From a virus, in IMG/VR virus record IMGVR_UViG_3300021560_000013, positions 32,001 through 96,000 of that record: a DNA stretch of 64,000 nt; one strand, 5' to 3'. This document shows positions 3,761-59,300 of this stretch, one piece after another. The notes beneath the pieces were generated by a model, which saw nothing but the letters and a program-made list of their open reading frames with translations, was not told where the DNA came from and searched no databases. Position 1 is the first letter of the stretch. Every line of letters starts with the position of its first letter. The position numbers and the translations under genes are program-made.

Positions 3761-4692
3761 TGGCGGACGGGCTGAAGATCACGCTGTCCGGTCTCGGTAA
3801 CGGGCTGACCGTGGACAAGAACGGTCGGGCGCTCCTGCCCAAGCCGTTCGTGTTCCAGTGCTCGCCGCTGGAGCAGTACGCGATCCAGTACCAGATGAAC
3901 ATGGGCATGTACGACACGATCGACAACGACCAGTTCATGCGCCGGGGCTCGCGCCAGCTGGACACCTGGTCGTTCGACACGCTTGCGATGTATCTAGGTG
4001 TCGATCCTCATCCGGACGGGGTCCTGCGCTCGGTGGACCAGATGAAGCTGGTCACCGACGGGCACTACCAGCCGTCGTGGGTGCCGCACCCGACGCGCGA
4101 GCCGTCCGGCACCCAGTACCACCGGCCCGAGTGGTACCGGGATCAGCTGGAGAAGCTGCTCGACGCGGGCTCGCCGTTCCAGTATGTCGCGGCGTTCATG
4201 CACTCGACCACGATCCACCGCACCCCGGCGGTGCTGACCGCGTTCCAGGAGATCCACAAGCACGGCGAGGGCGACGCGATCTACTTCGCCAGCGTGTCGT
4301 TCACCAAGTGGCGCGATCCGGGCGGCGAGTCGGACAAGCCGAAGGGCACGCACCATCTGCCGGGCCACGTCCGCTTCCGGCTCGTGCAGCCGAACAACCG
4401 CTACATCGCCTACGACCTGGCGAACAACCGCAACATCCCGACGAAGGCCCACCGGACCGGCACCACGCTGATGGACCTGTCCCGCTACTTCTACGGCGAC
4501 GCGTCGCACTGGCGCAAGATCGCCCAGGTCAACCACCTGAAGGGCGGCGGTGGCAACACGCCGATCTTCAAGCACTGGTACCCGCACCGGATCTCGCGCG
4601 GCAAGCCGAACGTGACCATGACCGTCCCGAAGCTCCCCAAGCCGCCGCCGACGACGCGCACCGCCCCGGCGAAGACGAGGAAGAAGAAGTGA
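3760..4692 (+). CDS. LysM-containing tail tube initiator (XkdP-like)
   Basis: GTTLMDLSRYFYGDASHWRKIAQVNHL is LysM-like; immediately follows the tape measure. Confidence 0.7.
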   Translation: MADGLKITLSGLGNGLTVDKNGRALLPKPFVFQCSPLEQYAIQYQMNMGMYDTIDNDQFMRRGSRQLDTWSFDTLAMYLGVDPHPDGVLRSVDQMKLVTDGHYQPSWVPHPTREPSGTQYHRPEWYRDQLEKLLDAGSPFQYVAAFMHSTTIHRTPAVLTAFQEIHKHGEGDAIYFASVSFTKWRDPGGESDKPKGTHHLPGHVRFRLVQPNNRYIAYDLANNRNIPTKAHRTGTTLMDLSRYFYGDASHWRKIAQVNHLKGGGGNTPIFKHWYPHRISRGKPNVTMTVPKLPKPPPTTRTAPAKTRKKK

Positions 4693-12400: not shown

Positions 12401-15400
12401 TGCTGGATGGAACAAGCTCACGGTTGACACGATCGGGACCGATCCGGGCGCGAACTTCACACTCGCAACTGGGCGCTACGTCTGTCCAGCCAGCGGCTGG
12501 TACCAGGTCAACGCACACGTCGAGTGGATCAACGCAACGTCGGGGCAGCTATACGGTGCTGGCGTCTACAAGAACGGCGCGAGCGTCGCCTTCAGTACGA
12601 CGCCGGGCACCGGCATCGAACTGGGCACTGGCACGAGTGACGTGATCCAGTGCAATGCGGGTGACTACCTCGAACTGTGGAGCTACAGCGGGAACGGCAC
12701 GATCGCCGTCGGCACGGCGGTAGCCAACACGTACCTGTCGGTCTCCCAGGTCGGGAACGTCTCTAGCGTCTCCGCGCCGACGAGCACGATGGCGGCGCGC
12801 GGGTACCGCAACGCCGCGCTCAGCCTCAGCACCGGGAGCAACAAGGTCCCGCTCGACACTGTCAGCTACGACACCAGCGGGCTGCTACAGACCGCCAATG
12901 GGCGGATCGTCTGTCCGGTCGCAGGGCTCTACCAGGTCAACGGGAGCGTCTACCCGAGCGTTGCGAACGCGACAATCGAGTGCCAGATCTGGAAGAACGG
13001 CGTGCAGGTGCTGTCAGGCAGCCAGGTGCAGGCGGTCGCAGCGGGCGGCTCGCTCGTCCAGGCGAACGACATCATCCAGTGCAACGCCGGTGACTACCTT
13101 GAGCTTTACGCGTACACGAGCGTCGCCGGGCCGCTGAGCGTCGGCACCCAGAACCTGAACTTCCTCTCGGTTGCGCTGATTTCCTCGCTGCCGGGGACGG
13201 CTGGGCCGGTCACGCCAGCGCGGGCGTACCGGAACGCGGCGTTCTCGGTTACCGCTTCAGGCATCACGAAGATCCCGCTGGACGCCGTCCAGTACGACCC
13301 CGGAGGGAACGTCAACACGGCGCAGGGGCGCTACAACGTACCGGCCACAGGCACGTACGCGATCAGTGCGCGCGTCATCATGCAGGCACCAGCCTCAAGC
13401 ACTGACATGACGGCTGAGCCGGTCATCCTCGTCAACGGCGCAACGCGGAGTTCTGGGGGCGGCGCGTCGCGCGTGGACAACAGCCAGTACGTGCGGATGA
13501 CCCACAGCGACATCCTCTCCCTGAACGCGGGGGACTACGTCGAACTGGGGGTGTACTCAAGCGCGGCGATCACCTACACCTGTTATGTCGGCCAGACGGG
13601 CGAGGCGAACTCGCTGTCGATCGCCCAGGTCGGGAACCTGTCGAGCGTCAGCGCTCCGACGAGCACGATGGCGGCGCGAGCTTATAGGAATGCCGCGCTC
13701 ACGCTGACCGCAGGTGCCACACAGAAGATCCCTCTCGACACCGCGAGCTTCGATACGTCGGGGATGGTCAGCACAGCCAATGGGCGGATCAACATCTCCC
13801 AGGCGGGCTACTACGATCTCCAAGCGTCAGCCGGAATATCTGGCGGCACTGCATCGGCAGATGGTCTATTCCAGGTGCAGATCTGGGTCAATGGGGCTGC
13901 TCGGGTCGAGGGCAATCGCAACACTCGGCTGGACCAGTTCGGTGCGGCGCTGAGTATGGCCTCCGACACGATGTCGTTGAACGCGGGGGATTATGTCGAG
14001 CTTTACTGCTATGCCACCAGCGCGTGGGCTGTGCAGGTAGGCGCGGTCCGCAACTACCTCTCACTCTCGCTGGTCTCCTCGCTCCCTGGGGCGGTCGGGC
14101 CGACGACCCCGGCGCGGATGCACAAGGCCGGGTTCACTTCCCCGGCAGCCAGCGCGCAGGTCATGCCGTTTGACGTTCTCGATTACGACCCCGGCGGGAA
14201 CATCAACCTCGCCACCTACCGGTACACCTGCCCGGCGACCGGCTACTACCAAGTGGACTGGACTCTCAACTCGGGGGTTGGGCCTGCGGGCACGAACATC
14301 ACCATGTACGCGTCGATCTACAAGAACGGCGCAGGCTACGGCACGATCAGCCGCGCCACCGAGACCAGCACTGACGGCTGGGCCTCTGTCGGCGGCTCGG
14401 ACCTGATCCCGTGCAACGCCGGGGACTACCTTCAGCTTTACTACTACACCTCGGGCGCGTGGAATAACACGAGCGCGCAGTTCGCCGTCGCCCAGGTCGG
14501 CAATCAGATGGCGATCCCCGCGAGCACCGTGTGCGCACGCGGGTATCGCAACGCTGCGTTCAGCCTCAGCGGCCCCGGCTGGACGAAGGTGCCGATCGAC
14601 ACCGCCGCCTTCGACACGAGCGGCGCGGTGCAGGCCGCGAATGGTCGGCTGGTCGCTCCCGTCGCGGGCTACTACCAGGTCCAGGCGGACGTGGCGCTGA
14701 ACGCCACGTCCTCCTTGACCTTCAGCCTGCTGATCTCGCTCTACAAGAACGGTGCCGAGGTGTCACGCGGCACCGAGTCGAATATCTCCATGAACGCGAC
14801 CAACGGGCGCGGGCAGAACGTCACCGACATCGTCTACTGCAACGCCGGTGACTACTTGGAGATGTACGTCTACAACAGCTACGGCTCACTTGCGCTGAGC
14901 GTCGGTAGCCCCTTGTACAACTACCTGTCGATGGCGCTGCTCACGCCGCTGTCGGGCACGGCGGGGCCGACGAGTGCCGCGAGGGCGTACCGCAACGCTG
15001 CGTACACGCTGCCAGCGAATGGCTGGCAGAAGATCCCGATCGACACGAAAGACTTCGATCCGGGCAACAACATCAGCACGTCAGCGAATCGCTACACGGC
15101 TCCCGCCACCGGCTACTACCAGGTGAACGGGGAGGTGGCGCTCGGTCCGACGACCGGGAACATCAGCGTGATGGTCCACTCGGCCATTTACGTCAACGGC
15201 ACCTACGTGCGCAGCGGCACGGTCGTATCCAACTCCGACAACAACGGCTACATGCGCGCGGGCGTGGCCGACATCCTCTCGCTGAACGCCGGGGACTACG
15301 TCGAGCTTTGGTGCTACTCGCTGACCGCGTACGCGCTGCTTGTCGGCCCGAGCTACAACTACCTCAGCGTCACGCAGGTCGGCAACTCGATGCAGTTCAA

Positions 15401-19198: not shown

Positions 19199-20457
19199 TG
19201 GCTGCCGTCAACCTCACCCCCAGCGCCGGTGCTGCCACCCAGGCGCTCGTGACGCTGTACGCGCCCGCGAAGGTGTTCTTCACCGCGAGCGCAGCTGCCG
19301 CCACGGCAGCGCTCGCCTCGCCGTCCACGCCGGTCACCGGCAACGGGCTGCCCCAGTCGATCGACCCGCTGGCGATCTTCTCCGACGTGAACACGCCCGA
19401 CTTGGAGCCGCCGGATCTGCTGTCCGAGGTGCCGCCCTTCGAGCAGAACTCCTACGAGATCCAGGCGGTGCTCGGCGTTGTCGCGAACGAGCTAGCGCGG
19501 ATCGAGGCGGCGCAGCAGGCGCTCGTGAACAACTTCTTCCCAGCGTCCGCCGACGCGCTGCTGCCGATCTTCGAGTCGCTGCTCGGCCTTCCGGTCGCCC
19601 CGCCGGGGCTCGACATCGGCACACGCCAGCAGATCGTGCTCGCGTACATGCAGCGGCTGAAGTCAGGCGGGCGCGGCCTGGACTGGATCAACGCGCTGAG
19701 CGCGCTGGCGGGCGTGAGCTTCACCTACCAGGAGCACCTCACCAACCCGATCACGAACCTCTGCACCAACGGCTCGTTCGAGCAGGACGTGGTCGGTGCC
19801 CTGCCCGCCGGGTGGAACACCGCCCCCGGCTACTGGATCAACACGGGCGCGACAGTCACCAAGCAGACGACAGGCGGCGGCTATGTCGGCGCGAGCGCGA
19901 TGCGGATCGTCACGCCCGGCGTCACCACACTGACCGGGGCGAAGTTTCCGATCAATGTGACCGCCGGTCAGCCGATGACGGTCAGCGCCGCGTTCAAGGG
20001 CGCTGCCGGGGGCGAGCAGATCCAGCTGGGCATCGGAGACGCGGTTGTCGGCTGGGCGTCAACCGCCGCCGTCACGCTGAGCACCGGCTGGCAGGTCTTG
20101 ACCACCACGCTCACGCCGACGGCCAGCGGCTCGACCTTCGTCGGGATCCGACAGAACCAGGCGAGCTACCCGGCGGTCACGTTCTACGTGGACGCCGTGA
20201 TGCTCGTCAACGGCTCCTCGGCCCCGGCCTACGCCGACGGCGATTCGCTCGGCTACCAGTGGTCCGGCGCGGCGGGGAACAGCACCAGCTTCCAGTCCTC
20301 GCCGCCCGCGAACACCGTCCTGGTCAAGATCCCGTCGGCGCTCGCCGGTGTCGGCTGGCCGTACATCCGCGACATCACCCCGGCTCACATCGCGATCCAG
20401 CAGGGCTACACCGACGGGTTCTTCGTCGGCATCACGAACATCGGGAGCAACCTATGA
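19198..20457 (+). CDS. Baseplate protein (YmfQ/XkdU-like) with an inserted carbohydrate-binding-like domain
   Basis: FESLLGL...RQQIV and C-terminal PAHI motifs; insert starting NLCTNGSFE. Confidence 0.7.
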   Translation: MAAVNLTPSAGAATQALVTLYAPAKVFFTASAAAATAALASPSTPVTGNGLPQSIDPLAIFSDVNTPDLEPPDLLSEVPPFEQNSYEIQAVLGVVANELARIEAAQQALVNNFFPASADALLPIFESLLGLPVAPPGLDIGTRQQIVLAYMQRLKSGGRGLDWINALSALAGVSFTYQEHLTNPITNLCTNGSFEQDVVGALPAGWNTAPGYWINTGATVTKQTTGGGYVGASAMRIVTPGVTTLTGAKFPINVTAGQPMTVSAAFKGAAGGEQIQLGIGDAVVGWASTAAVTLSTGWQVLTTTLTPTASGSTFVGIRQNQASYPAVTFYVDAVMLVNGSSAPAYADGDSLGYQWSGAAGNSTSFQSSPPANTVLVKIPSALAGVGWPYIRDITPAHIAIQQGYTDGFFVGITNIGSNL

Positions 20458-21587
20458 GCAAGCACCGCCAGCTGGTCTACGGCGCGCCCATTCCCCAGGA
20501 CTTCCTGGACGCGCTCCAGGAGTTCATCGGCATGGCCCACTCGGGCCTGCAGCTGTCCGTCGTCACGCCGGGCACCGCCAGCCAGCCCGCCAACCAGGTG
20601 CAGGTCGCTGCCGCGTCCGGCAACAGCCAGGTCGGCATCGCGATCAACGGACTGTGGCGCTACGTCGCCTCACCGCCCGCGCCGATCTCGATCTCGGGCG
20701 CGCCCGGCACCTACGACATCTTCGCCTGCACCGGCAACAACAGCTTCAGCGTCAACGCGACGCCACCGCCGCCCGAGCTTGACGCGACCGACTACACGTT
20801 CACACTCCAGGCGCTCCCCCAGGGCAGCACGCCGACGAGCCCGCCGAACTACCGCAAGATCGGGGAGTGCGTGTTCGACGGCACGCGGATCCTGTACCTG
20901 CGCCAGACGCTCGGCGGCGGCGACAGCTACCGCCAGTTCCAGGCGGGCGACCTGAAGCTGTCCGCCGTCGCGAGCCCGCCGCCGGGCTGGCTGCTGTGCG
21001 ACGGGACCGCGTACAGCCGGGCGACGTACGGCGTCCTCTACGCCGCCCTGGGAGGGTCAGCCTCGCCGCACGGCCAGGGAGACGGCTCGACTACCTTCAA
21101 CGTGCCGGACTACAAAGGCCGCGTTCCGATGGGCGTCGGCACCGCCGCCGGGGCAGCCGGGGCTACCAGCCACACGCTCGGAGCCAAGGGCGGCGAGGAG
21201 ACCCACGTACTGCAGAACGCCGAGATGCCCAGCCACAGCCACGGCGGCTTCGACGGCTACGCCTCGACCGACCACTACCACTACGGCGGCACCAGCAACG
21301 ACTCGCCCGACCATGCGCACAACCTGTCGCTCTCGGCCAACAACTCGCCCGTCACCCAGTCGGGCGGGCAGGGTTGCGCGACGATCGGCGGCGGGTCGAG
21401 CACCAGCGGCGCGACCGCCCGGCACTCGCACACGTTCACGACCTGGTGGCAGTCCCAGACGCGCAACAGCTACGACGGCTCGGTCTCCGACCCGAACCAC
21501 CGTCACGCGATCAGCGCCGACGGCGGCAGCGGCCCTCACAACACGCTGATGCCGTACACCACCTGCAACGTATTCATCAAGTTCTAG
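20454..21587 (+). CDS. Tail-collar domain fibre protein
   Basis: PPGWLLCDGTAYSRATY...GDGSTTFNVPD...GGEETHVL...EMPSHSH. Confidence 0.85.
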   Translation: MSKHRQLVYGAPIPQDFLDALQEFIGMAHSGLQLSVVTPGTASQPANQVQVAAASGNSQVGIAINGLWRYVASPPAPISISGAPGTYDIFACTGNNSFSVNATPPPPELDATDYTFTLQALPQGSTPTSPPNYRKIGECVFDGTRILYLRQTLGGGDSYRQFQAGDLKLSAVASPPPGWLLCDGTAYSRATYGVLYAALGGSASPHGQGDGSTTFNVPDYKGRVPMGVGTAAGAAGATSHTLGAKGGEETHVLQNAEMPSHSHGGFDGYASTDHYHYGGTSNDSPDHAHNLSLSANNSPVTQSGGQGCATIGGGSSTSGATARHSHTFTTWWQSQTRNSYDGSVSDPNHRHAISADGGSGPHNTLMPYTTCNVFIKF

Positions 21588-21630
21588 CTCACGACGTAAC
21601 ACATGCTGCGCGCTCGTGTATCCTGTGAGC

Positions 21631-21712
21631 ACACGAGGACCCCGAACGCAACTCTCCTCGGTCGGGATTGAAACGTCCGGGCCTCTGAAACGGCTCCTAC
21701 GGGAGCCGTTTC
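21631..21712 (+). ncRNA. Predicted small antisense RNA complementary to the phage CCCGACCGAGGAG RBS motif
   Basis: TATCCT -10 at 21619-21624; irregular stem presenting CTCTCCTCGGTCGGGA (21652-21667) at its apex; terminal 11-bp hairpin; no credible ORF. Confidence 0.6.
21687..21712. terminator. Hairpin terminator, probably bidirectional
   Basis: GAAACGGCTCC-TACG-GGAGCCGTTTC perfect 11-bp stem with a UNCG loop, between convergent gene blocks. Confidence 0.75.
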
Positions 21713-21761
21713 GCCTTCCAGGGCCAGGTACCGGGTGGGGGCTCGGAGGGGCGCAGCGGGC

Positions 21762-22073
21762 TCAGGCGGCGCTCTGGGGGGCCTTCTGGGGCCATAGCCC
21801 CGCCATCCGCTCGCGCGCCCCGGCGGTCGTCCAGATCGTCACACCGAATGACGGCGGCGAGCCGATCCGGCACTCGCCTTCGAGCGTCAGCCACTCCAGG
21901 CGCGGCCTGCCGTCCCGGTCCTCCAGGTCCATCGGGTCAAGGCACCGGCGGCGCGTCTCCGGATCGCTGGAGCGGTAGTCGCCCGTCCGGTGGATGTCGA
22001 ACGCCTCGACGGAGTGGAAGTGCCTGCCGCAGGCACTGCAATGGTTGGTGCAGGTGACGGTCTTAGCTGGCAA
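21762..22073 (-). CDS. Small zinc-binding phage protein (FDxHR type)
   Basis: HCSACGRHF...AFDIHR...C motif; TTG start overlaps the upstream gene. Confidence 0.65.
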   Translation of the reverse strand: MPAKTVTCTNHCSACGRHFHSVEAFDIHRTGDYRSSDPETRRRCLDPMDLEDRDGRPRLEWLTLEGECRIGSPPSFGVTIWTTAGARERMAGLWPQKAPQSAA

Positions 22074-22995
22074 CGGGCTCCTCGACCGCCTCGCCCTCGA
22101 TCGGGATCGAGCCCCCGTTGCGCAGCACGAAGTCCGTTACCTCCTGCAGGATCTCCGTCCGCTTCGCCAGGTCCGCCCCGGCGAGCTTCAGCCGCACCTT
22201 CTGGGGTAGGAATGATCCGGGCCGGACACGGTTCGCCTCAGCGAACGCCACCTGCAGCTGTCGGGCAAGCTCGTCGTCCGGCCCCCAGTCAGGCTCCTGG
22301 TCGATCGGCGCGCCCAGGTCGATGATCCCGCCGAGCTTCTCGTCGTAGCGTGCGCCCACCTCGTCCTCGGGGATCAGCCCGGTGATCGAGAACTGCTTGC
22401 GGAGCACCATCGACTCGGCGCACTTCAGGATCATCGCGTCCGGGTACTTGCCCCAGGACTTCTTCATGTTCGGGCGGTTGTACTGGGCGAACTTCGCCAG
22501 GAAGAACGTCGGCACGCGCACGCCCCGGTAGCACATCGCCCACGCGCCGACGATGTTGCCCTTCAGCCGCTCCTCGGCGGCGATCTCGTCGTAGGTGTGG
22601 ACGAACCCATCCTTGGTGCGGGCGATCTTGTCGGTGGCGTAGATCACGTCGCCGTTCATCCCGCCGAAGTCGTCGTAGCGGTTCGCGATCGCGAGCAGCC
22701 CGTCGCGCGAGACGATTGTCACCCACGTCGGCTCCTCGCCGTCGCGGCCCGGCATCTTCGCCAGGTACACCTGCCCGGCGAACGGGTCGAGCTTGTAGCG
22801 CCCCGTCAGTTCGAGGAACATCAGGAACGCGTTGTCGTCCGCGCCGCGAGCGACCGTCCGCTTCATCAGCGCCAGCTGCTCGTTGTCGAACGCGAACCGC
22901 GCCGGACGCGTCAGCGGCGTCGGCATCGCGCGGACGATCATGCCGGGGTTGTCGCCCGGCGGGGCCTCCGGGGGGGCTGTCTCGGTCTCAGCCAT
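22063..22995 (-). CDS. bet: Bet/RecT-family single-strand annealing protein
   Basis: LDPFAGQVY, VSRDGL, GAWA, WGKYPDAMILKCAES..LRKQF motifs; adjacent to a nuclease. Confidence 0.85.
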   Translation of the reverse strand: MAETETAPPEAPPGDNPGMIVRAMPTPLTRPARFAFDNEQLALMKRTVARGADDNAFLMFLELTGRYKLDPFAGQVYLAKMPGRDGEEPTWVTIVSRDGLLAIANRYDDFGGMNGDVIYATDKIARTKDGFVHTYDEIAAEERLKGNIVGAWAMCYRGVRVPTFFLAKFAQYNRPNMKKSWGKYPDAMILKCAESMVLRKQFSITGLIPEDEVGARYDEKLGGIIDLGAPIDQEPDWGPDDELARQLQVAFAEANRVRPGSFLPQKVRLKLAGADLAKRTEILQEVTDFVLRNGGSIPIEGEAVEEPVAS

Positions 22996-24208
22996 TGCCT
23001 GCCTTTCTCGCTTCCACCTGCGCCAGCGATGCCTCCAGCTGGCGCAGCAGTTCGTCGTCTACTTCCTCGGGCACGATCGGAGGCTTCGGGATGTGGATGT
23101 CGAACCGCGTCCCGATCTCCTCACGGTACAAGTCCTCGATCGACTCGCCCACCTGCAGGCCGCGCTCCAGCTGCTCCATCGTCGGGCGCGCCACCCGGCG
23201 CTGCACCCGATGGCCGTACACCCGGTTCGCCTTCGCGTCCTTCACCGGGATCGGACCGTGAACCGACGCCCACGCCTTCGCCGCCTCCTTGTTCTGCTTG
23301 ATCGCCTTCTCGGCCACCAGGATCTGAGCGACCACCTCCTCAGCCTCCTCCGCGTTGCGGATGCGGCCCCGACGGCGCGCCGTAGGGAAGATCGGGCACG
23401 CCGTCGGGCGGGGGCAGTGGCCGCAGTGGTTACCCGGCGAGGGATGCCAGGTCTCCTCCTCGACCGAGCGGTCGAAGCGTTCGATCAGCGCCGACATCGT
23501 CAACTCGATCTCGTCCAGCTGATCGCGATACAAGGTCGCCTGTCGTGGCTGGGAGTAGCGGGGGTAGAACTCGCGCAGCGTGATCGACGTGAGCGGCGCG
23601 TGGTTCTTGAAGCCGAGCAGCGCGTAGGCCCGCTGCTGGAAGAAGCCCGACTCGGAGATCTCCGAGGGCGGCGGCAGCCACCAGCCGGTCTTCCAGTCGA
23701 TCACGATCCCGTGCTCCAGGTTCTCGCCTTCCGCGAACAGCGCGTCCAGCTGGCCGGTGAACACCCGGTCCACCTGCCCGCCGTACGGGTTCGGGTAGCG
23801 CACGACCGTGTCCAGCCGCTGCTCGATGTCCACCAGCCCGGCGATGTTCCACTGCGTCTCGGAGGCGAACTTCTTCGTCATCCACAGCAGATCGTGGATC
23901 TCGGACATCGGCACGTTCACCATGTCCGCGATCGGCACGTCCGCCTGGCGCAGCGTCTCCAGCATGATCGCGAGCGCTACGTCCACCTCGATGCGCTCCT
24001 CGCCGTGCGCGGCCATCTCCCGCAGCATCTTCGCTGCCGCCCGGTGCCAGATGATCCCCCGGCCCGACGCCGCGTCCGAGAACGTCTTGCGGTACCGGCG
24101 CTCGAACAGGCTCATCAGCCCGCACTCGTCGTAGTCCGACAGGGTGCTTTGCCGGACCCTCGGGAACTCCTCCAGCGCCTTCGGATACGGCGTCGCTGCT
24201 ACCACCAC
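22988..24208 (-). CDS. PD-(D/E)XK (RecB-like) exonuclease
   Basis: GQLD...IDWKTG, QQRAY, C-terminal HCGHCP...CP; partner of Bet. Confidence 0.8.
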   Translation of the reverse strand: MVVAATPYPKALEEFPRVRQSTLSDYDECGLMSLFERRYRKTFSDAASGRGIIWHRAAAKMLREMAAHGEERIEVDVALAIMLETLRQADVPIADMVNVPMSEIHDLLWMTKKFASETQWNIAGLVDIEQRLDTVVRYPNPYGGQVDRVFTGQLDALFAEGENLEHGIVIDWKTGWWLPPPSEISESGFFQQRAYALLGFKNHAPLTSITLREFYPRYSQPRQATLYRDQLDEIELTMSALIERFDRSVEEETWHPSPGNHCGHCPRPTACPIFPTARRRGRIRNAEEAEEVVAQILVAEKAIKQNKEAAKAWASVHGPIPVKDAKANRVYGHRVQRRVARPTMEQLERGLQVGESIEDLYREEIGTRFDIHIPKPPIVPEEVDDELLRQLEASLAQVEARKAGNG

Positions 24209-29608: not shown

Positions 29609-29638
29609 TGGCTCTCTCCTTGGTCGGGGTCCACCTAG

Positions 29639-31979: not shown

Positions 31980-32009
31980 GCTCACTCCTCGGTCGGGGGT
32001 TGCACTACA

Positions 32010-32032
32010 AGCTTAGCACACGTCGTTAGCTT
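32010..32032 (-). promoter_or_regulatory. 19-bp palindrome fused to -10 box TAAGCT
   Basis: Minus strand AAGCTAACGACGTGTGCTA-AGCT. Confidence 0.7.
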
Positions 32033-32717
32033 CGCGCGTGCGCTGCTCCATCTGCTCGATGATTCGTCGCCCGGTCTCGTAGCAGCCGCCGCGCTGGCGG
32101 TTGCTGAGCGCGCCGTAGACGATCCACGGCCAGCGCTTCTGAAGCGCGTCCGCCAGCAGCCGGTTGAACGCGGTGCCGTGGACGCCGACGCGCCGCCCGC
32201 GCTTGTCGCGGTCGAGAGGGCCGTCGGCCATGTGCGCCGCCTCGTGGTAGATCAGCCACAGTCCCTCCTCGTAGCTGGCCTTGCCGAACGTGAACCACAC
32301 GTCGAAGCCGCCGAGGATCGCGCGGCCCGTGTGATGGCCCTTGTCGCCCCGGCGGATCTTGATGTTGATGTCGGAGATCGTCGGCTTGTGCCCGTAGGCC
32401 CAGCCGTTGAAGTAGCCCATCGCCGTCAGCGCCGTGCGTAGCTCGGTCTTCACGTCCAGGTCACGCTCGACGCCGTTCGCGTCCTTCAGCGTGACCAGCC
32501 AGCGCGCCCGCTCCGCGTCCGCCTTCCGGCGGGCCTTGGTGGCGGACCTGGCGGCAGCCTCTTCGCGGCGGCGCTCCAGGCTCGGAGCCGTCCGCTGGAC
32601 CAGCCTGCCGGTCTTCGCGCTACAGCGCAGGCAGTAGCGCCGGACATCGTCCATGCGCGGGCGCTGCGGCCCGTTGACGCCGCCGCCGCAGCTGGGGCAC
32701 ACCCATCGGACCGCCAT
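32013..32717 (-). CDS. SprT-like zinc metalloprotease with an N-terminal Zn ribbon
   Basis: CPSC...CLRC; HEAAH...HGTAF. Confidence 0.65.
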   Translation of the reverse strand: MAVRWVCPSCGGGVNGPQRPRMDDVRRYCLRCSAKTGRLVQRTAPSLERRREEAAARSATKARRKADAERARWLVTLKDANGVERDLDVKTELRTALTAMGYFNGWAYGHKPTISDINIKIRRGDKGHHTGRAILGGFDVWFTFGKASYEEGLWLIYHEAAHMADGPLDRDKRGRRVGVHGTAFNRLLADALQKRWPWIVYGALSNRQRGGCYETGRRIIEQMEQRTREANDVC

Positions 32718-33814: not shown

Positions 33815-33866
33815 CTCGTTCGTACCTCCTCGGTCGGGGAAGGCGGGGGGATCACCCCGCACACTG

Positions 33867-34250: not shown

Positions 34251-34284
34251 GGCTGCCGATCAATCCAAGACCGAGGAGGTCACG

Positions 34285-34575: not shown

Positions 34576-34595
34576 CACGCGTCGTGTGCTAAACT
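34573..34595 (+). promoter_or_regulatory. Palindrome + -10 TAAACT
   Basis: TAGCACGCGTCGTGTGCTA-AACT; TAG is the upstream stop codon. Confidence 0.75.
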
Positions 34596-34626
34596 GGTCG
34601 GCGTATCCCCGACCGAAGGAGACGCG

Positions 34627-34815
34627 ATGCACACTGGCTATGACGACCTGGTGTGGGTACCGAGCGGCCACAACGACGGCTACTCGTACGCCACGGTCGT
34701 GCTTGGCAGGAACGACACAGCCTGGAACCCGGCGAGCACGAAGCACGTCATCTACGGCCCGGCCAAGGTGACCTACGAGCGGAGCCCGGCCAGCATCACC
34801 GGCTACGTCGAATGA
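34627..34815 (+). CDS. Hypothetical protein
   Basis: RBS motif variant upstream. Confidence 0.6.
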   Translation: MHTGYDDLVWVPSGHNDGYSYATVVLGRNDTAWNPASTKHVIYGPAKVTYERSPASITGYVE

Positions 34816-36350: not shown

Positions 36351-36371
36351 GAGCGCCGGTACGCTGTCCCC

Positions 36372-36950
36372 GTGGACGAGGACGGGGCTCGGTCGATCGA
36401 AGAGATGCACGAGCGCCAGGAGCGCAAGCGCGGGCGCAAGCCGGGCATGACCGAGGCCGAGCGCGAGGAGCGCAACCAGGAGTTGATCCGAGACCGGCTG
36501 CGCGGCCAATCGTGGACGTACCTGTCCGAGAAGTACGGCATCCAGGCGCGCGTCTGCATGAAGATCTACAAGGAGTGGCGCGACGAGAACGCGCCGACCT
36601 ACCAGGGCCGTGACCCGATCGCGATCGTCCACTCGATGCTCGACCGGCTGGAGGCGTGGGTGGAGCAGCTGGCCGAGATCGCGGACGAGGCCGAGGGCAA
36701 CGTCAGGATCTCCGCGATCAACGCGCAGCTGAACGCGCTGACCCGCACCGCCGAACTGATGCAGGCGACGGGCCTGCTGCCGCACGACCTGGGCACGCTG
36801 CGCCTGGAGCTTGACGTGCAGGCGCTCGGCGTCCGGCTTGTCACAGTTCTGACAGAACAGGGCGCAACGCCCGAGATGAAGCGCGCGATCCTCAACGCGC
36901 TCCGACCTGATGAAGTGCCGCAGCCCGCACTGTCCAACGGGAGCGGCTGA
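36372..36950 (+). CDS. Putative terminase small subunit (HTH)
   Basis: RLRGQSWTYLSEKYGI HTH followed by helices; upstream of TerL; TACGCT 6 nt before GTG (leaderless). Confidence 0.6.
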   Translation: MDEDGARSIEEMHERQERKRGRKPGMTEAEREERNQELIRDRLRGQSWTYLSEKYGIQARVCMKIYKEWRDENAPTYQGRDPIAIVHSMLDRLEAWVEQLAEIADEAEGNVRISAINAQLNALTRTAELMQATGLLPHDLGTLRLELDVQALGVRLVTVLTEQGATPEMKRAILNALRPDEVPQPALSNGSG

Positions 36951-39705: not shown

Positions 39706-39746
39706 TCCACAAGGAATGGGTAAACCTTACGCACGCGCCCTTCCCA

Positions 39747-39769
39747 TAGCGCACGTCATGTGCTATCCT
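39747..39769 (+). promoter_or_regulatory. Palindrome + -10 TATCCT
   Basis: TAGCGCACGTCATGTGCTA-TCCT, followed by a hairpin leader and the RBS motif. Confidence 0.75.
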
Positions 39770-39821
39770 CTAGGTGGAGGGTGGGAGGCTCCCGCCCTTG
39801 ACTCCCGACCGAGGAGACACC

Positions 39822-40710: not shown

Positions 40711-40755
40711 CTAGGTGCAGCCAATCGGCTGCGACACACCGACCGAGGAGAAGAC

Positions 40756-42208: not shown

Positions 42209-42341
42209 CAATGAGGAGGGGGCGCTGGCAAGGACCAGAGCCTCCCGGAGCGACGCCGGACCGCGTGAAGCGACCGGACCCTCCGGAGAGCCGAGGCACC
42301 GTCCCAGGCCCCCTTCCTTCAACCCCGACCGAGGAGATCAC

Positions 42342-42512: not shown

Positions 42513-42866
42513 GTGTTCGCCTACGAGACCGAGCCGTACGCGCGCTTCGCTGACGAAGGCCAGCCTCTCTTCTTCCGGCGGCGCTACGGGGGCAGCCCCG
42601 AGCCGCCGCAGGAGATCGGCGGCATGATGTTCGTGTCGCTCGCCCCCGCCGAGGCGATCTGGATCTACGGCTACTCGACGCAGTCCCGCTACGCCGAGGA
42701 CCGCGCGCTAGACCCCGGCGTCTGGGCTACCCGCCGGGCGTTCTGGGGCTGGCACTACAGCGTCATGGAGCCGCGCGGTGAGCCGGGCTACATCGCCCTG
42801 GCCGACGTGACCGAAGAGATCACCCGCGAGGAGTTCGAGGCAGCAGCCGAACGCGGCTGGTCGTAG
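42513..42866 (+). CDS. Hypothetical protein
   Basis: GGAGGAG RBS. Confidence 0.6.
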   Translation: MFAYETEPYARFADEGQPLFFRRRYGGSPEPPQEIGGMMFVSLAPAEAIWIYGYSTQSRYAEDRALDPGVWATRRAFWGWHYSVMEPRGEPGYIALADVTEEITREEFEAAAERGWS

Positions 42867-42886
42867 CGCACGATGTGTGCTACACT
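42864..42886 (+). promoter_or_regulatory. Palindrome + -10 TACACT
   Basis: TAGCGCACGATGTGTGCTA-CACT. Confidence 0.8.
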
Positions 42887-42933
42887 CTAGGTGGAGGGAA
42901 TGAGCCCTCCGCTCCCGACCGAGGAGGACGACA

Positions 42934-43984: not shown

Positions 43985-44004
43985 ACACCGACCGAGGAGA
44001 CACG

Positions 44005-44666: not shown

Positions 44667-44716
44667 GAAGGTGCGGGGGGAACACCCCCGCACTCCACCC
44701 GACCGAGGAGACACTG

Positions 44717-56389: not shown

Positions 56390-59300
56390 ATGGATTGGGC
56401 GACAGCAGCAGCAACCGTGAGCGACAGGGCAAACCTGTCCGAGCCACCCGACGCGCCCGGCGATGACTGGGACTTCTGGGACGAGGTGCAGAAGCTCGTT
56501 GACCCCGAGCTTCAGGAGGCATACGCAGCAGAGCTTCACCCGCGCGATCGCGCCGGGCGCTGGATGGAGAAGCTGGGGCTGAACCGCCTGCACGAGGTGG
56601 GCGGCGCACCGCGCGACGACCTGCTCGGCAAGATCCCGAAGGACATCGACTACATGGCCGTCGAGTCACCCGAGGAGATCCAGCGCAAGGTCGAGGCAGC
56701 TGGAGGCAAGGCCGAGCCGCTGATGGTCCGAGACCGGCTCGTGGGCGTTCGCGCGACGCACCCGGATCTGCCGCCCGGCGGCGTCGAGATCGTGCCGCCG
56801 CGCGTCGAGCAGTCCACCGGCGAGGGCCGACACGACTTCGCGATCGTGCCTCATCCCGGCCTGGGCACCGGCGCGAGCCCGGAGCACATGATCTCCGACG
56901 ACGCGCAGCGCCGGGACTTCACCGTCAACGCGATGTACCACGACACGGCGACCGGCGAGACGGTCGATCCGACCGGCCACGGCGTCGAGGACGCGCGCAC
57001 GCGCACGCTGCGCATGGTCCACGACCAGAGCTTCCAGGAGGACCCGCTGCGGATGCTGCGCGGCGCACGGTTCGCCTCACAGCACAACCTGACGCCGGAC
57101 CCGGCGACGTTCGCCGCGATGCAGCGCGACTCCGGAGGCATGACCGCGCTCACGCAGAAGGGTGTGAGCGGCACCGTCCAGGACGAGATGCGCAAGCTCC
57201 TGATGGGCGACAACCCCGGCAAGGGCCTGCGACTCATGCGCGACACCGGCATGCTGCAGCAGCTGCTGCCCGAGCTTGCGCCGATGGTCGGGTTCGACCA
57301 GCGCTCCGTCTACCACGAGCACACCGTGGATGAGCACACGTTCGAGGTGGTTGACGAGTTGGCGAAGGCGGGCGCGAGCTACGAGGCACGGCTCGCGGCG
57401 CTGTTCCACGACTCGGGCAAGCCAGCGACCGCGAACCTCAAGCCGGACGGCCACTTCCGCTTCCACTCGCACCCCGAGCACGGCGATCACCAGGACGTGG
57501 GAGCGCAGATCGCGCACGACACGCTGAGGCGGCTGAACTACCCGAAGGACACGCTCGACCACGTCACCGGCCTGGTGCGCGAGCACATGCTCACCGCCGT
57601 CACCAAGCCGACGCCGGTCAAGGCCAGGCGGCTCCGAGCCCGCTTCTCGGACAAGTTCCTGACCGACCTGCTCGACCACAAGGCCGCTGACATGGAGGGC
57701 CACGGCGACATGGTGGCGAAGGACCGCGAGGGGATCGGCAAGCTCCGCGCGCTGCTGGCCGAGAACGCCGACGCGCCGCGCTCGCTGAAGGATCTGAACG
57801 TCAACGGGCACGACCTGATGGCCGAGGGAATCGCGGAGGGTCCGGTGATCGGCCAGACGCTCAACCAGCTACTACGCGAGGTCGTGGACAACCCGGACCT
57901 GAACCGGCGCGAGTGGCTGCTGAACCGGGCTGCGAAGCTGGCGGCGCTGAGCACCCAGGAGTGGGCCGCACTGGAGGAAGCGAACATCTACGAGGAGGCG
58001 CTCCACCCGCGCGATCGACTGGGCAAGTGGATGTCCAAGGAGTTCGGTGAGCAGCTGGCCCGGCCCGGCAACAAGCGCAGCGGGAAGAAGCCGACGCCGT
58101 ACAGGCCCGCGCAATGGACCGACACCGGCCAGGACTTCCAGACGATGGCGCACGAGGCCGCGCAGCTGGTTCACCCCGAGGGGACGCCCGAGGAGCACGC
58201 CGAGATCGCCAGGGCCGTGACTGCCGACAGGCCACCGCCGAGGGGCGTGAGCAAGGAGGCGAAGAAGGCGGCGAAGAAGCTGCGCGACAAGAGCGCGCCC
58301 GAGGGCCGCTGGGGCCAGTACATCTACCGGCTGCACGGCATCGCCGCCGCCGCTCACGCCGACCAGACCGACCGGAGCGGCAAGCCGTACATCCAGCACG
58401 TCGAGGCGGTGGCTGACTCCGTCTCGGATGAGGCCAAGCCGGTGGCGCTGTTCCACGACGCGCTGGAGGACGCCGAGCTAACGCCCGAGGTGCTGAAGGC
58501 GGCGCTGACCGAGCCGCACGTAATGACCCCCGAGCAGGCGCAGACGATCGTTGACGCGATCGGGCTGCTGACCCACGACGACGCGGAGTCCTACGGCGAG
58601 TACATCGACCGGCTCGCGAACGCGCCGGGCAAGGCGGGCGAGCTTGCACGCGAGGTGAAGCGCGCCGACCTGCAGCACAACCTGGGCCGCATGACCCCGG
58701 AGATCGTCCGCGACGCGCCGCAGCTGCAGGAGCGCTACGGGAAGGCGCTGCGGACGCTCGCGCCCGAGCGCACGCCGATCTCGCAGCGCGGCGCGCCGCT
58801 GAACGTGAACAACCTGGACGAGGCGACGGTGCTGGCCCGGCTGCGCAAGCTGTACGAGGCGAGTGAGCAGGCGGGCACGGCTGAGATCGAGAAGCACTGG
58901 TACCAGCAGGCGCACGACGAGATCGCCGCGCTGGCCGAAGAGCACGACGTTGACCCGCATGTGCTCGCCGCGATGGTGGCCGCGACATCGCCGCAGCTGA
59001 CCTGGCGTCACGAGTTCAAGGACGGGCGTGTCAAGTACCCGAACCTCGAACTGGCGGTCAACGCGATCAGGCTCGCGCGCCGCTACCCGGACGAGCCCGC
59101 GCCGAAGCTGGTGGACCGGCTGGTCGAGGCGTCCACGAAGCGCACGCCCGAGGAGCGCAAGGCCGGACCGAGCGAGCTTGGTGGGCTGGGCGAGTCGATC
59201 CTCAAGGCGATCCGGATCTACCGGGGCGAGGATCCCGAGCGGGTCCTCGGCGCGCCCAAGACGCGCTCGTTCGCGAACAACCTGACCTACCCGGACCAGG

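Follow-up and report, generated by a model that had tools for sequence, protein, structure and literature searches.

A candidate phage small RNA whose loop is complementary to the start-associated sequence of its own non-structural genes

A conserved element at the end of a phage tail operon carries, in the loop of a predicted hairpin, the exact complement of a start-associated sequence (SAS) that is found at about 25 gene starts of the same phage. The element (21619-21712) lies in a stretch of 64,000 nucleotides (nt), hereafter the window, which comprises bases 32001-96000 of the 110,271-base IMG/VR virus record IMGVR_UViG_3300021560_000013; coordinates are those of the window unless the genome or another record is named. 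On the plus strand, where the loop is antisense to the SAS, the element may encode a small RNA that pairs with SAS leaders, a reading that comes from sequence comparison and is held with moderate confidence. Less confidence attaches to the further proposal that such pairing would repress the SAS genes late in infection, because this step depends on deductions about transcription, about the acting strand and about the direction of the effect.

The SAS of this phage is the 12-mer CCGACCGAGGAG, which has 18 exact copies in the 110-kb genome, 17 of them located 4-11 nt before an ATG or GTG codon and in the orientation of the gene. Approximately eight variant copies bring the total to the ~25 gene starts with the motif. 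The genes concerned are small genes of unknown function and the exonuclease operon; no SAS with zero or one mismatch was found before a start codon in the capsid-to-tail module, or before the annotated terminase, portal and lysis genes. For the 16-mer TCCCGACCGAGGAGAG, the window has 11 matches with up to three mismatches, where 2.1 are expected, and none of 100 shuffled sequences reached 11. An earlier, sequence-only inspection of the window (the original prediction) had counted 14 genes with this motif. The shared motif was recovered, but the count was slightly high, since 11 copies of the 11-mer SAS core, with at most one mismatch, precede a start codon in gene orientation (Table 1). The near-full match that it placed at 39803-39817 corresponds to a copy at 39803-39818 that agrees with the 16-mer at 15 of 16 bases. 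Placement of the SAS at start codons also holds in the relatives of this phage and in a sister clade, both described below. This strict orientation and position relative to start codons points to recognition at the RNA level.

The 18th exact copy is different. It is inverted, gene-less and located on the minus strand at 21654-21665, in a hairpin loop between the stop codon of the tail-fibre gene and a terminator hairpin. It is the only exact copy with no start codon at a distance of 3-12 nt, in agreement with the original prediction, which had singled it out as the one copy that does not precede a credible gene.

This orphan copy is part of a compact, ordered element. Read on the plus strand, 21654-21665 is the complement of CCGACCGAGGAG, and it sits at the apex of a hairpin whose 5′ arm, GAGGACCCCGAACG (21635-21648), pairs with CGTCCGGGCCTC (21674-21685). 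The apical sequence is predicted to fold into a mini-hairpin, UCCU-CGGUC-GGGA, with its loop at 21659-21663. Folding of 21625-21716 gave a structure more stable than those of shuffled sequences (z = −3.1). Upstream of the hairpin is a −10-like box of the TAnnCT class, the same class as approximately 13 promoter-like boxes in the SAS leaders of this genome; in relatives, the box is followed by CTAAGC, as in one of the SAS-leader promoters of the phage. Downstream is a GC-rich terminator hairpin followed by UUUC(C/U)... The box, the stem, the antisense 16-mer and the UACG hairpin all lie exactly where the original prediction had placed them, and both the box before the hairpin and the terminator after it are conserved. 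A search of 21400-21900 returned no Rfam family match at E values up to 1.

The element occupies the convergent junction between a plus-strand tail module, which ends at 21587, and a minus-strand operon, which ends at 21762. It is co-oriented with the tail-fibre gene and shares its terminator, and neither the sequence nor the folds revealed a terminator-like hairpin between the tail-fibre stop codon (21587) and 21687. This is the layout of a small RNA derived from a 3′ untranslated region, and the lack of an intervening terminator implies that late transcripts must contain the element.

Evidence that the hairpin is conserved came from 14 relatives, of which seven are IMG/VR contigs reached through RecT, six were added by a scan with the 16-mer and one by a profile search, giving 15 members with the window. 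A query with the tail-fibre protein alone found no related loci. The antisense copy is present in all 14 relatives that contain the region. Along the tail-fibre strand, all 15 members have the same order: the end of the fibre-side gene, the box (TATCCT, TATGCT or TAAGCT), 0-10 nt, a two-part stem, the CTCCTCGGTCGGGAT loop, and a GAAACGGCC...GGCCGTTTC hairpin. The 15-nt loop sequence CTCCTCGGTCGGGAT is 100% identical in all 15, whereas the flanking proteins have diverged, with 68-79% identity for RecT and 40-54% for the tail fibre across the 14 relatives. The conserved block runs from the −10-like box to just past the terminator, even in members with a different left neighbour (L006, L007 and L026).

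The stems behave in the opposite way to the loop. They fall into seven groups that share almost no sequence, yet all of them pair. Covariation was counted only within two cleanly aligned subgroups, A4 and A2, because MAFFT misaligned the stems across all groups and RNAalifold missed the helix; a covariance model, R1, realigned close groups only. In subgroup A4, four pairs show changes in both partners and no pair shows a change in just one, none of 500 shuffles reached the observed score, and the signal was lost when the stem partners were slid relative to each other. Four more pairs changed on both sides in subgroup A2. The terminator hairpin covaries too, as shown by RNAalifold. An arm-swap duplex test gave −25.2 kcal/mol for cognate arms and −18.6 kcal/mol for non-cognate arms, a comparison that is noisy in sequence this rich in GC. 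Relatives that retain the antisense copy had been among the comparative tests of the original prediction, and this outcome is in its favour.

The 15 members also bear on the possibility that the inverted copy is left over from a lost gene start, or is a true ribosome-binding site for a small or antisense open reading frame (ORF) on the minus strand. That strand does carry a perfect SAS, followed after 2 nt by a TTG and after 19 nt by a GTG, the latter opening a 191-amino-acid (aa) antisense ORF. However, none of the 15 members has a start codon at 3-12 nt, and the sequence past the motif, which varies from group to group, provides the covarying stem with its 3′ arm. The short frames have a G+C content at third codon positions (GC3) near 60%, compared with approximately 90% in real genes, and the 191-aa ORF, which overlaps the tail-fibre gene in antisense, does not pass the GC3 filter. 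Moreover, a relic would not remain 100% conserved amid diverging flanks. A lost or hidden gene start is thus an extremely improbable explanation. A coding role for the minus-strand copy was rejected because there is no usable start codon, and the available frames have 16-20 codons, low GC3 and no conservation in relatives.

Additional evidence for a functional link between loop and SAS came from a sister clade of four 105-135-kb phages (G001-G004), reached with a RecT profile that included distant homologues. In aligned segments, these phages are 35-43% identical to the window in RecT and 39-55% in the baseplate J protein. Their SAS, CCGACCAAGGAG, differs from that of the window by one base and has 13-19 exact copies per genome, all but one of which precede start codons. 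An orphan copy is present in three of the four sister genomes (112-135 kb), 130-380 nt upstream of RecT. On the coding strand it reads GTCCTTGGTCGGAC or ACCCTTGGTCGGGT, that is, (A/G)(C/U)CCUUGGUCGG(G/A), which is the complement of CCGACCAAGG and includes the clade-specific base. The loop CGGUC of the window clade thus matches GACCG, and the loop UUGGUC of the sister clade matches GACCAA, such that seed and target sites differ jointly between the clades. The original prediction had named covariation of this kind as a check. In both clades, the bases exposed in the loop are the partners of the SAS centre, GACC(G/AA), a match that suggests initiation of pairing at the loop.

The sister-clade element resembles that of the window in other respects. 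A TANNNT box (TACTCT, TAGCCT or TAAGAT) lies ahead of it in all three members that have it, a strong terminator comes after it, with a tail that is T-rich on the anti-SAS strand but not on the other, and the predicted RNA folds with z of approximately −4, with the anti-SAS in a 4-bp mini-hairpin that has UUGGUC as its apical loop. The tail genes, the element, RecT and the exonuclease are all co-directional. Covariance model R1 did not detect the sister-clade element, and a 14-mer scan for its loop gave mostly chance matches and no new members. In G003 (L080 9190-9385), the anti-SAS module is immediately preceded by a gene whose end looks like the catalytic motif of an L,D-transpeptidase (YkuD-like); in this phage, the module may follow a lysis or cell-wall gene instead of a tail fibre.

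Predicted interaction energies are consistent with recognition of the SAS by the plus-strand RNA. For an 86-nt RNA, predicted net binding was −14 to −32 kcal/mol for four leaders with an exact SAS, compared with −4 to −8 kcal/mol for five leaders that lack the motif. In a duplex scan of the whole genome, the top matches were mainly SAS sites, over a background that is high because of GC-rich sequence.

Which strand acts is a separate question. The plus (anti-SAS) strand is favoured, though not proven, by the order of box, hairpin and terminator, by the TAnnCT class of the box, by the lack of a terminator between the tail-fibre stop codon and the element, by the T-richness of the tail and by the orientation of the sister-clade element, with architecture and sister clade weighed more. 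In 12 of the 15 members the tail after the terminator has more T on the plus strand than on the minus strand; in the other 3 the two strands are equal, and in no member is the plus strand poorer. The minus strand could instead be the functional one, with a sense-SAS hairpin at the 3′ end of the exonuclease/RecT operon that would either act as a sponge or decoy or offer high-affinity binding to a factor that recognizes the SAS (a protein, an RNA or the 30S subunit), and with no antisense action. When only the stems were folded, with the loop set to GAAA, the minus strand was the more stable in 12 of 15 members and had 31 G-U pairs as against 12; the fold of the whole region is also stronger on the minus strand (z = −3.8) than on the plus strand (z = −2.7), and the loop would display the SAS in single-stranded form, as leaders do. 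The excess of G-U pairs and stability may in part reflect the G-richness of the sense-SAS strand, and the group C stems (L005 and L007) need three G-U pairs that are available only on the plus strand. Furthermore, a minus-strand hairpin would lie downstream of the operon's terminator, with no terminator of its own after it; the sister clade has no minus-strand genes nearby and has a T-rich terminator tail on the anti-SAS strand only; and the conserved TAnnCT box would be left without a role. Action from the minus strand therefore appears unlikely.

The element might also act in cis or at the level of DNA, either as a convergent-terminator structure (a second hairpin, or protection of 3′ ends) or as a site for an SAS-binding protein, with no pairing to messages in trans. 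The element always adjoins the terminator hairpin, and Watson-Crick compensatory changes are strand-symmetric, so a DNA cruciform also fits them. In addition, the authors who described the SAS of Cluster K mycobacteriophages considered DNA-binding proteins for the extended SAS repeats of those phages (PMC3203893). Yet a stabilizer or terminator needs neither an invariant 15-nt loop complementary to the SAS nor a loop that changes together with the SAS between clades, and the strict placement of the SAS at start codons argues for recognition in RNA. The hairpin itself is not a terminator, since both of its strands lack a T tract. A purely structural or DNA-level role is judged distinctly unlikely.

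The preferred reading, an RNA from the plus strand that pairs with SAS leaders, would work as follows. The gene for a small regulatory RNA of approximately 80 nt would run on the plus strand from about 21631 to 21712-21716, ending at the shared terminator. Its product could arise from its own TAnnCT −10 box, from the 3′ end of the tail-fibre mRNA, or from both. Pairing would begin between the exposed apical CGGUC and the GACCG of the SAS, from which the duplex could lengthen to as many as 16 nt, covering the GGAG core of the Shine-Dalgarno sequence. Translation would be blocked by hiding the ribosome-binding site on the ~25 non-structural genes that carry the SAS, the duplex may also be a substrate for a double-strand RNase, and the virion genes, which have no SAS, would be spared. 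With the RNA co-transcribed with the late tail operon or made at its end, the likely outcome would be that early and accessory genes are turned off at a late stage of infection. The original prediction had also raised a role as a lysogeny switch, which nothing in the analysis supports.

Several observations weigh against this reading, to which some from Cluster K, given below, should be added. No −35 element is present, and scans for E. coli-type sigma-70 consensus sequences call neither a promoter nor a terminator at the element; the T tract of the terminator is shorter than E. coli rules require, hence it was missed by the scan. Actinobacterial promoters often consist only of TANNNT, and actinobacterial terminators often have short U tracts. 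Accessibility of the seed, which the original prediction had made a condition, is partial: CGGUC is exposed and is the only part of the loop with a probability of being unpaired above 0.8, whereas in the anti-Shine-Dalgarno part UCCU pairs with GGGA to form a weak 4-bp stem, and opening the 16-mer costs approximately 6 kcal/mol. The exonuclease leader, which has an SAS with one mismatch, is predicted to bind only weakly (−2.7 kcal/mol). The greater fold stability of the opposite strand, described above, counts on the same side. The covariation between loop and SAS amounts to one substitution and one evolutionary event, and in the sister clade complementarity stops within the Shine-Dalgarno core (GGGU or GGAC, not GGAG). 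Finally, the fourth sister record, G002, which is 85% complete, has no orphan copy among the sites inspected.

The proposed mode of action has parallels in bacterial and phage RNAs. Staphylococcus aureus RNAIII and RsaE, and the actinobacterial 6C small RNA, act in trans and use C/U-rich loops to mask the Shine-Dalgarno sequences of many mRNAs. The likeness lies in an anti-Shine-Dalgarno seed in a loop, in one RNA with many targets and in the layout of promoter, stem-loop and terminator. The targets of those RNAs, however, pair imperfectly and share only a G-rich ribosome-binding site, whereas here the address is an identical 12-16 nt, apparently built into the phage genes, and the regulator is the phage's own. 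Phage antisense RNAs, such as c4 of P1 and P7, CI RNA of P4, sar of P22 and OOP of lambda, have loops that pair with ribosome-binding or leader sites and control a developmental decision. They too are small, phage-encoded and loop-pairing, but each has only one or two target sites, which lie in the same transcript or in one that overlaps it, and the setting is immunity or lysogeny; the RNA proposed here is linked to a virion operon and would have ~25 sites over 110 kb. In phage T4, the endoribonuclease RegB and the translational repressor RegA bring about global early-gene shut-off through a shared feature of initiation regions (GGAG in early Shine-Dalgarno sequences). These regulators are proteins rather than RNA, and they work without an extended sequence address. 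By analogy, the element would function like a trans-acting anti-Shine-Dalgarno small RNA, and what would be new is a phage-internal regulon of identical addresses.

The closest parallel is the SAS of Cluster K mycobacteriophages, described together with an extended SAS (ESAS) by Pope et al. in 2011 (PMC3203893). Both systems consist of a short, asymmetric repeat with a Shine-Dalgarno core, located a few nt before the start codons of non-structural genes only, conserved beyond what pairing to 16S rRNA would require, and with some copies behind a promoter/inverted-repeat module. Both also have one reversed, gene-less copy: in K1 phages there is one per genome, and its function was left open as "RNA or protein" (PMC3203893). 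The function of the SAS was still called unknown in 2024-2025 (PMC11373665, PMC12699233). The original prediction knew of no phage system with this design; a SAS with a single reversed gene-less copy has in fact been on record since 2011 (PMC3203893), but the explanation through an RNA is absent there, and no anti-SAS RNA was found in literature searches. The two motifs, CCGACCGAGGAG here and GGGATAGGAGCCC in Cluster K, have only the GGAG core in common, and phage type and host are also unrelated, which makes the SAS of this phage an analogue of the Cluster K SAS and not a homologue. A further difference is that the reversed copy of Cluster K has not been proposed to act as an RNA.

In Adephagia (JF704105), the gap between gp92 and gp93 contains a conserved hairpin (GTCGACCAG...CTGGTCGAC, inner stem GCGCG/CGCGC), and the reversed SAS (record 58682-58694) lies in its apical loop. 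Within record 58559-58759 (L039 9560-9760) and its homologues (L040-L047), an invariant TAGACT box and a first, terminator-like hairpin lie upstream of the reversed-SAS hairpin. RNA sequencing (RNA-seq) placed the start of late transcription in the same gp92-gp93 gap (PMC11373665). The hairpin region is conserved in 177 Cluster K records, with a loop that varies between subclusters, and the G-U pairs of CrimD and Validus favour the anti-SAS strand. On the other hand, the loop is the exact anti-SAS in K1 only, while the hairpin is kept outside K1. Amohnition has 17 SAS copies of the standard sequence, but its loop reads CCCTCCTTCCCC; Keshu and Marshawn have unrelated loops. Covariation of loop and SAS was thus not found within Cluster K, and with an exact anti-SAS loop confined to K1 the parallel is suggestive and not general.

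Many SAS copies of the phage studied here are part of a longer leader, which consists of a palindrome (AGCGCACG-N3-CGTGTGC) and a TAnnCT −10 box that overlap each other, followed by CTAGGTGG, a short GGAGGG...CCCTCC hairpin and the SAS. Examples are found at 39745-39805, 42860-42915 and 31996-32060 (minus strand) in the window, and at 3850-3910 and 13120-13180 in the genome. The palindromes recur in relatives L007 and L026 and in G002, and the module is reminiscent of the promoter-bearing extended SAS of Cluster K. Two gene starts (genome 6151-6190; window 34591-34630) have an SAS variant with one inserted A, CCGACCGAAGGAG; they rank high in the duplex scan and are overlooked by searches that allow only mismatches. 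A second conserved motif, GGTACTTCGATTCNGATGACGTCCGA, is located approximately 60 nt upstream of the exonuclease SAS in relatives L002-L005 (e.g. L002 4720-4760).

Table 1. Features of the element, its neighbouring genes and the SAS copies in the window
Feature	Position	Strand	Evidence or prediction
−10-like box TATCCT, TAnnCT class	21619-21624	+	predicted transcription start near 21630-21633
Hairpin: outer stem GAGG/CCUC, inner stem CCCG-A-ACG / CGU-C-CGGG, apical anti-SAS	21635-21685	+	folds; compensatory changes in relatives
Anti-SAS 16-mer CTCTCCTCGGTCGGGA, reverse complement of TCCCGACCGAGGAGAG	21652-21667	+	
Terminator hairpin GAAACGGCUCC-UACG-GGAGCCGUUUC, common to the convergent tail and exonuclease/RecT operons	21687-21712	+	RNAalifold consensus with compensatory pairs
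Tail-fibre gene, Collar domain, last of virion tail operon	19812-21587	+	Pfam Collar and PHROG tail-fibre matches; tblastn to minor tail proteins
Convergent leftward operon, exonuclease/RecT/zinc finger	21762-24208	−	Pfam; synteny in relatives
Exonuclease gene	22988-24208	−	Pfam PDDEXK_1
RecT gene	22063-22995	−	Pfam RecT
Zinc-finger protein gene	21762-22073	−	Pfam Phage_zn_bind_3
SAS copy CGACCGAGGAG, 8 nt before exonuclease start codon	24217-24227	−	
SAS copy CGACCAAGGAG, 1 mismatch, before 132-aa gene	29616-29626	−	
SAS copy before 83-aa gene	31985-31995	−	
SAS copy before 219-aa gene	33826-33836	−	
SAS copy AGACCGAGGAG, 1 mismatch, before 96-aa gene	34268-34278	+	
SAS copy before 80-aa gene; extended motif 15/16 bases (39803-39818)	39806-39816	+	predicted net binding −13.6 kcal/mol
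SAS copy before 92-aa gene	40740-40750	+	
SAS copy before 56-aa gene	42326-42336	+	predicted net binding −31.8 kcal/mol
SAS copy before 116-aa gene	42916-42926	+	
SAS copy before 131-aa gene	43989-43999	+	predicted net binding −14.8 kcal/mol
SAS copy before 107-aa gene	44700-44710	+	

The phage itself is known only from metagenomes. Its record has a G+C content of 68%, and megablast against phages found no close cultured relative. The plus-strand tail module encodes a baseplate J protein, a Mu gp48-like protein and the tail fibre with its Collar domain. A RecT homologue, P0024, which is 71% identical, is annotated by NCBI as belonging to an Acidimicrobiaceae metagenome-assembled genome, which gives a clue to the lineage of hosts for these phages. 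A 199-aa protein, encoded on the plus strand at 36351-36950 immediately before the large terminase gene, has a PHROG match annotated as RNase E (phrog_645, E = 9e-7); a phage RNase could bear on RNA-mediated decay of early messages.

A broader proposal is advanced tentatively, as a possibility that comparison of the two systems raises. The SAS may be an address for a dedicated phage RNA, with each SAS phage encoding one anti-SAS RNA that is tied to late transcription and uses loop-loop pairing to silence an early/accessory regulon. Such a timing device would be general and would have two independent origins, one in these ~110-kb actinobacterial myovirus-like phages and one in Cluster K1. Existing RNA-seq data allow the Cluster K parallel to be checked, and Cluster K phages serve mycobacterial genetics and phage therapy. 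The two clades described here form a natural orthogonal pair (C:G versus U:A) for compensatory tests and for synthetic translational switches. If the proposal is true, a phage RNA that reads the SAS address would give a concrete, testable answer to the purpose of the SAS, a question open since 2011, and would represent a new design for timing in phage infection, in which one small RNA controls a built-in regulon of identical sites.

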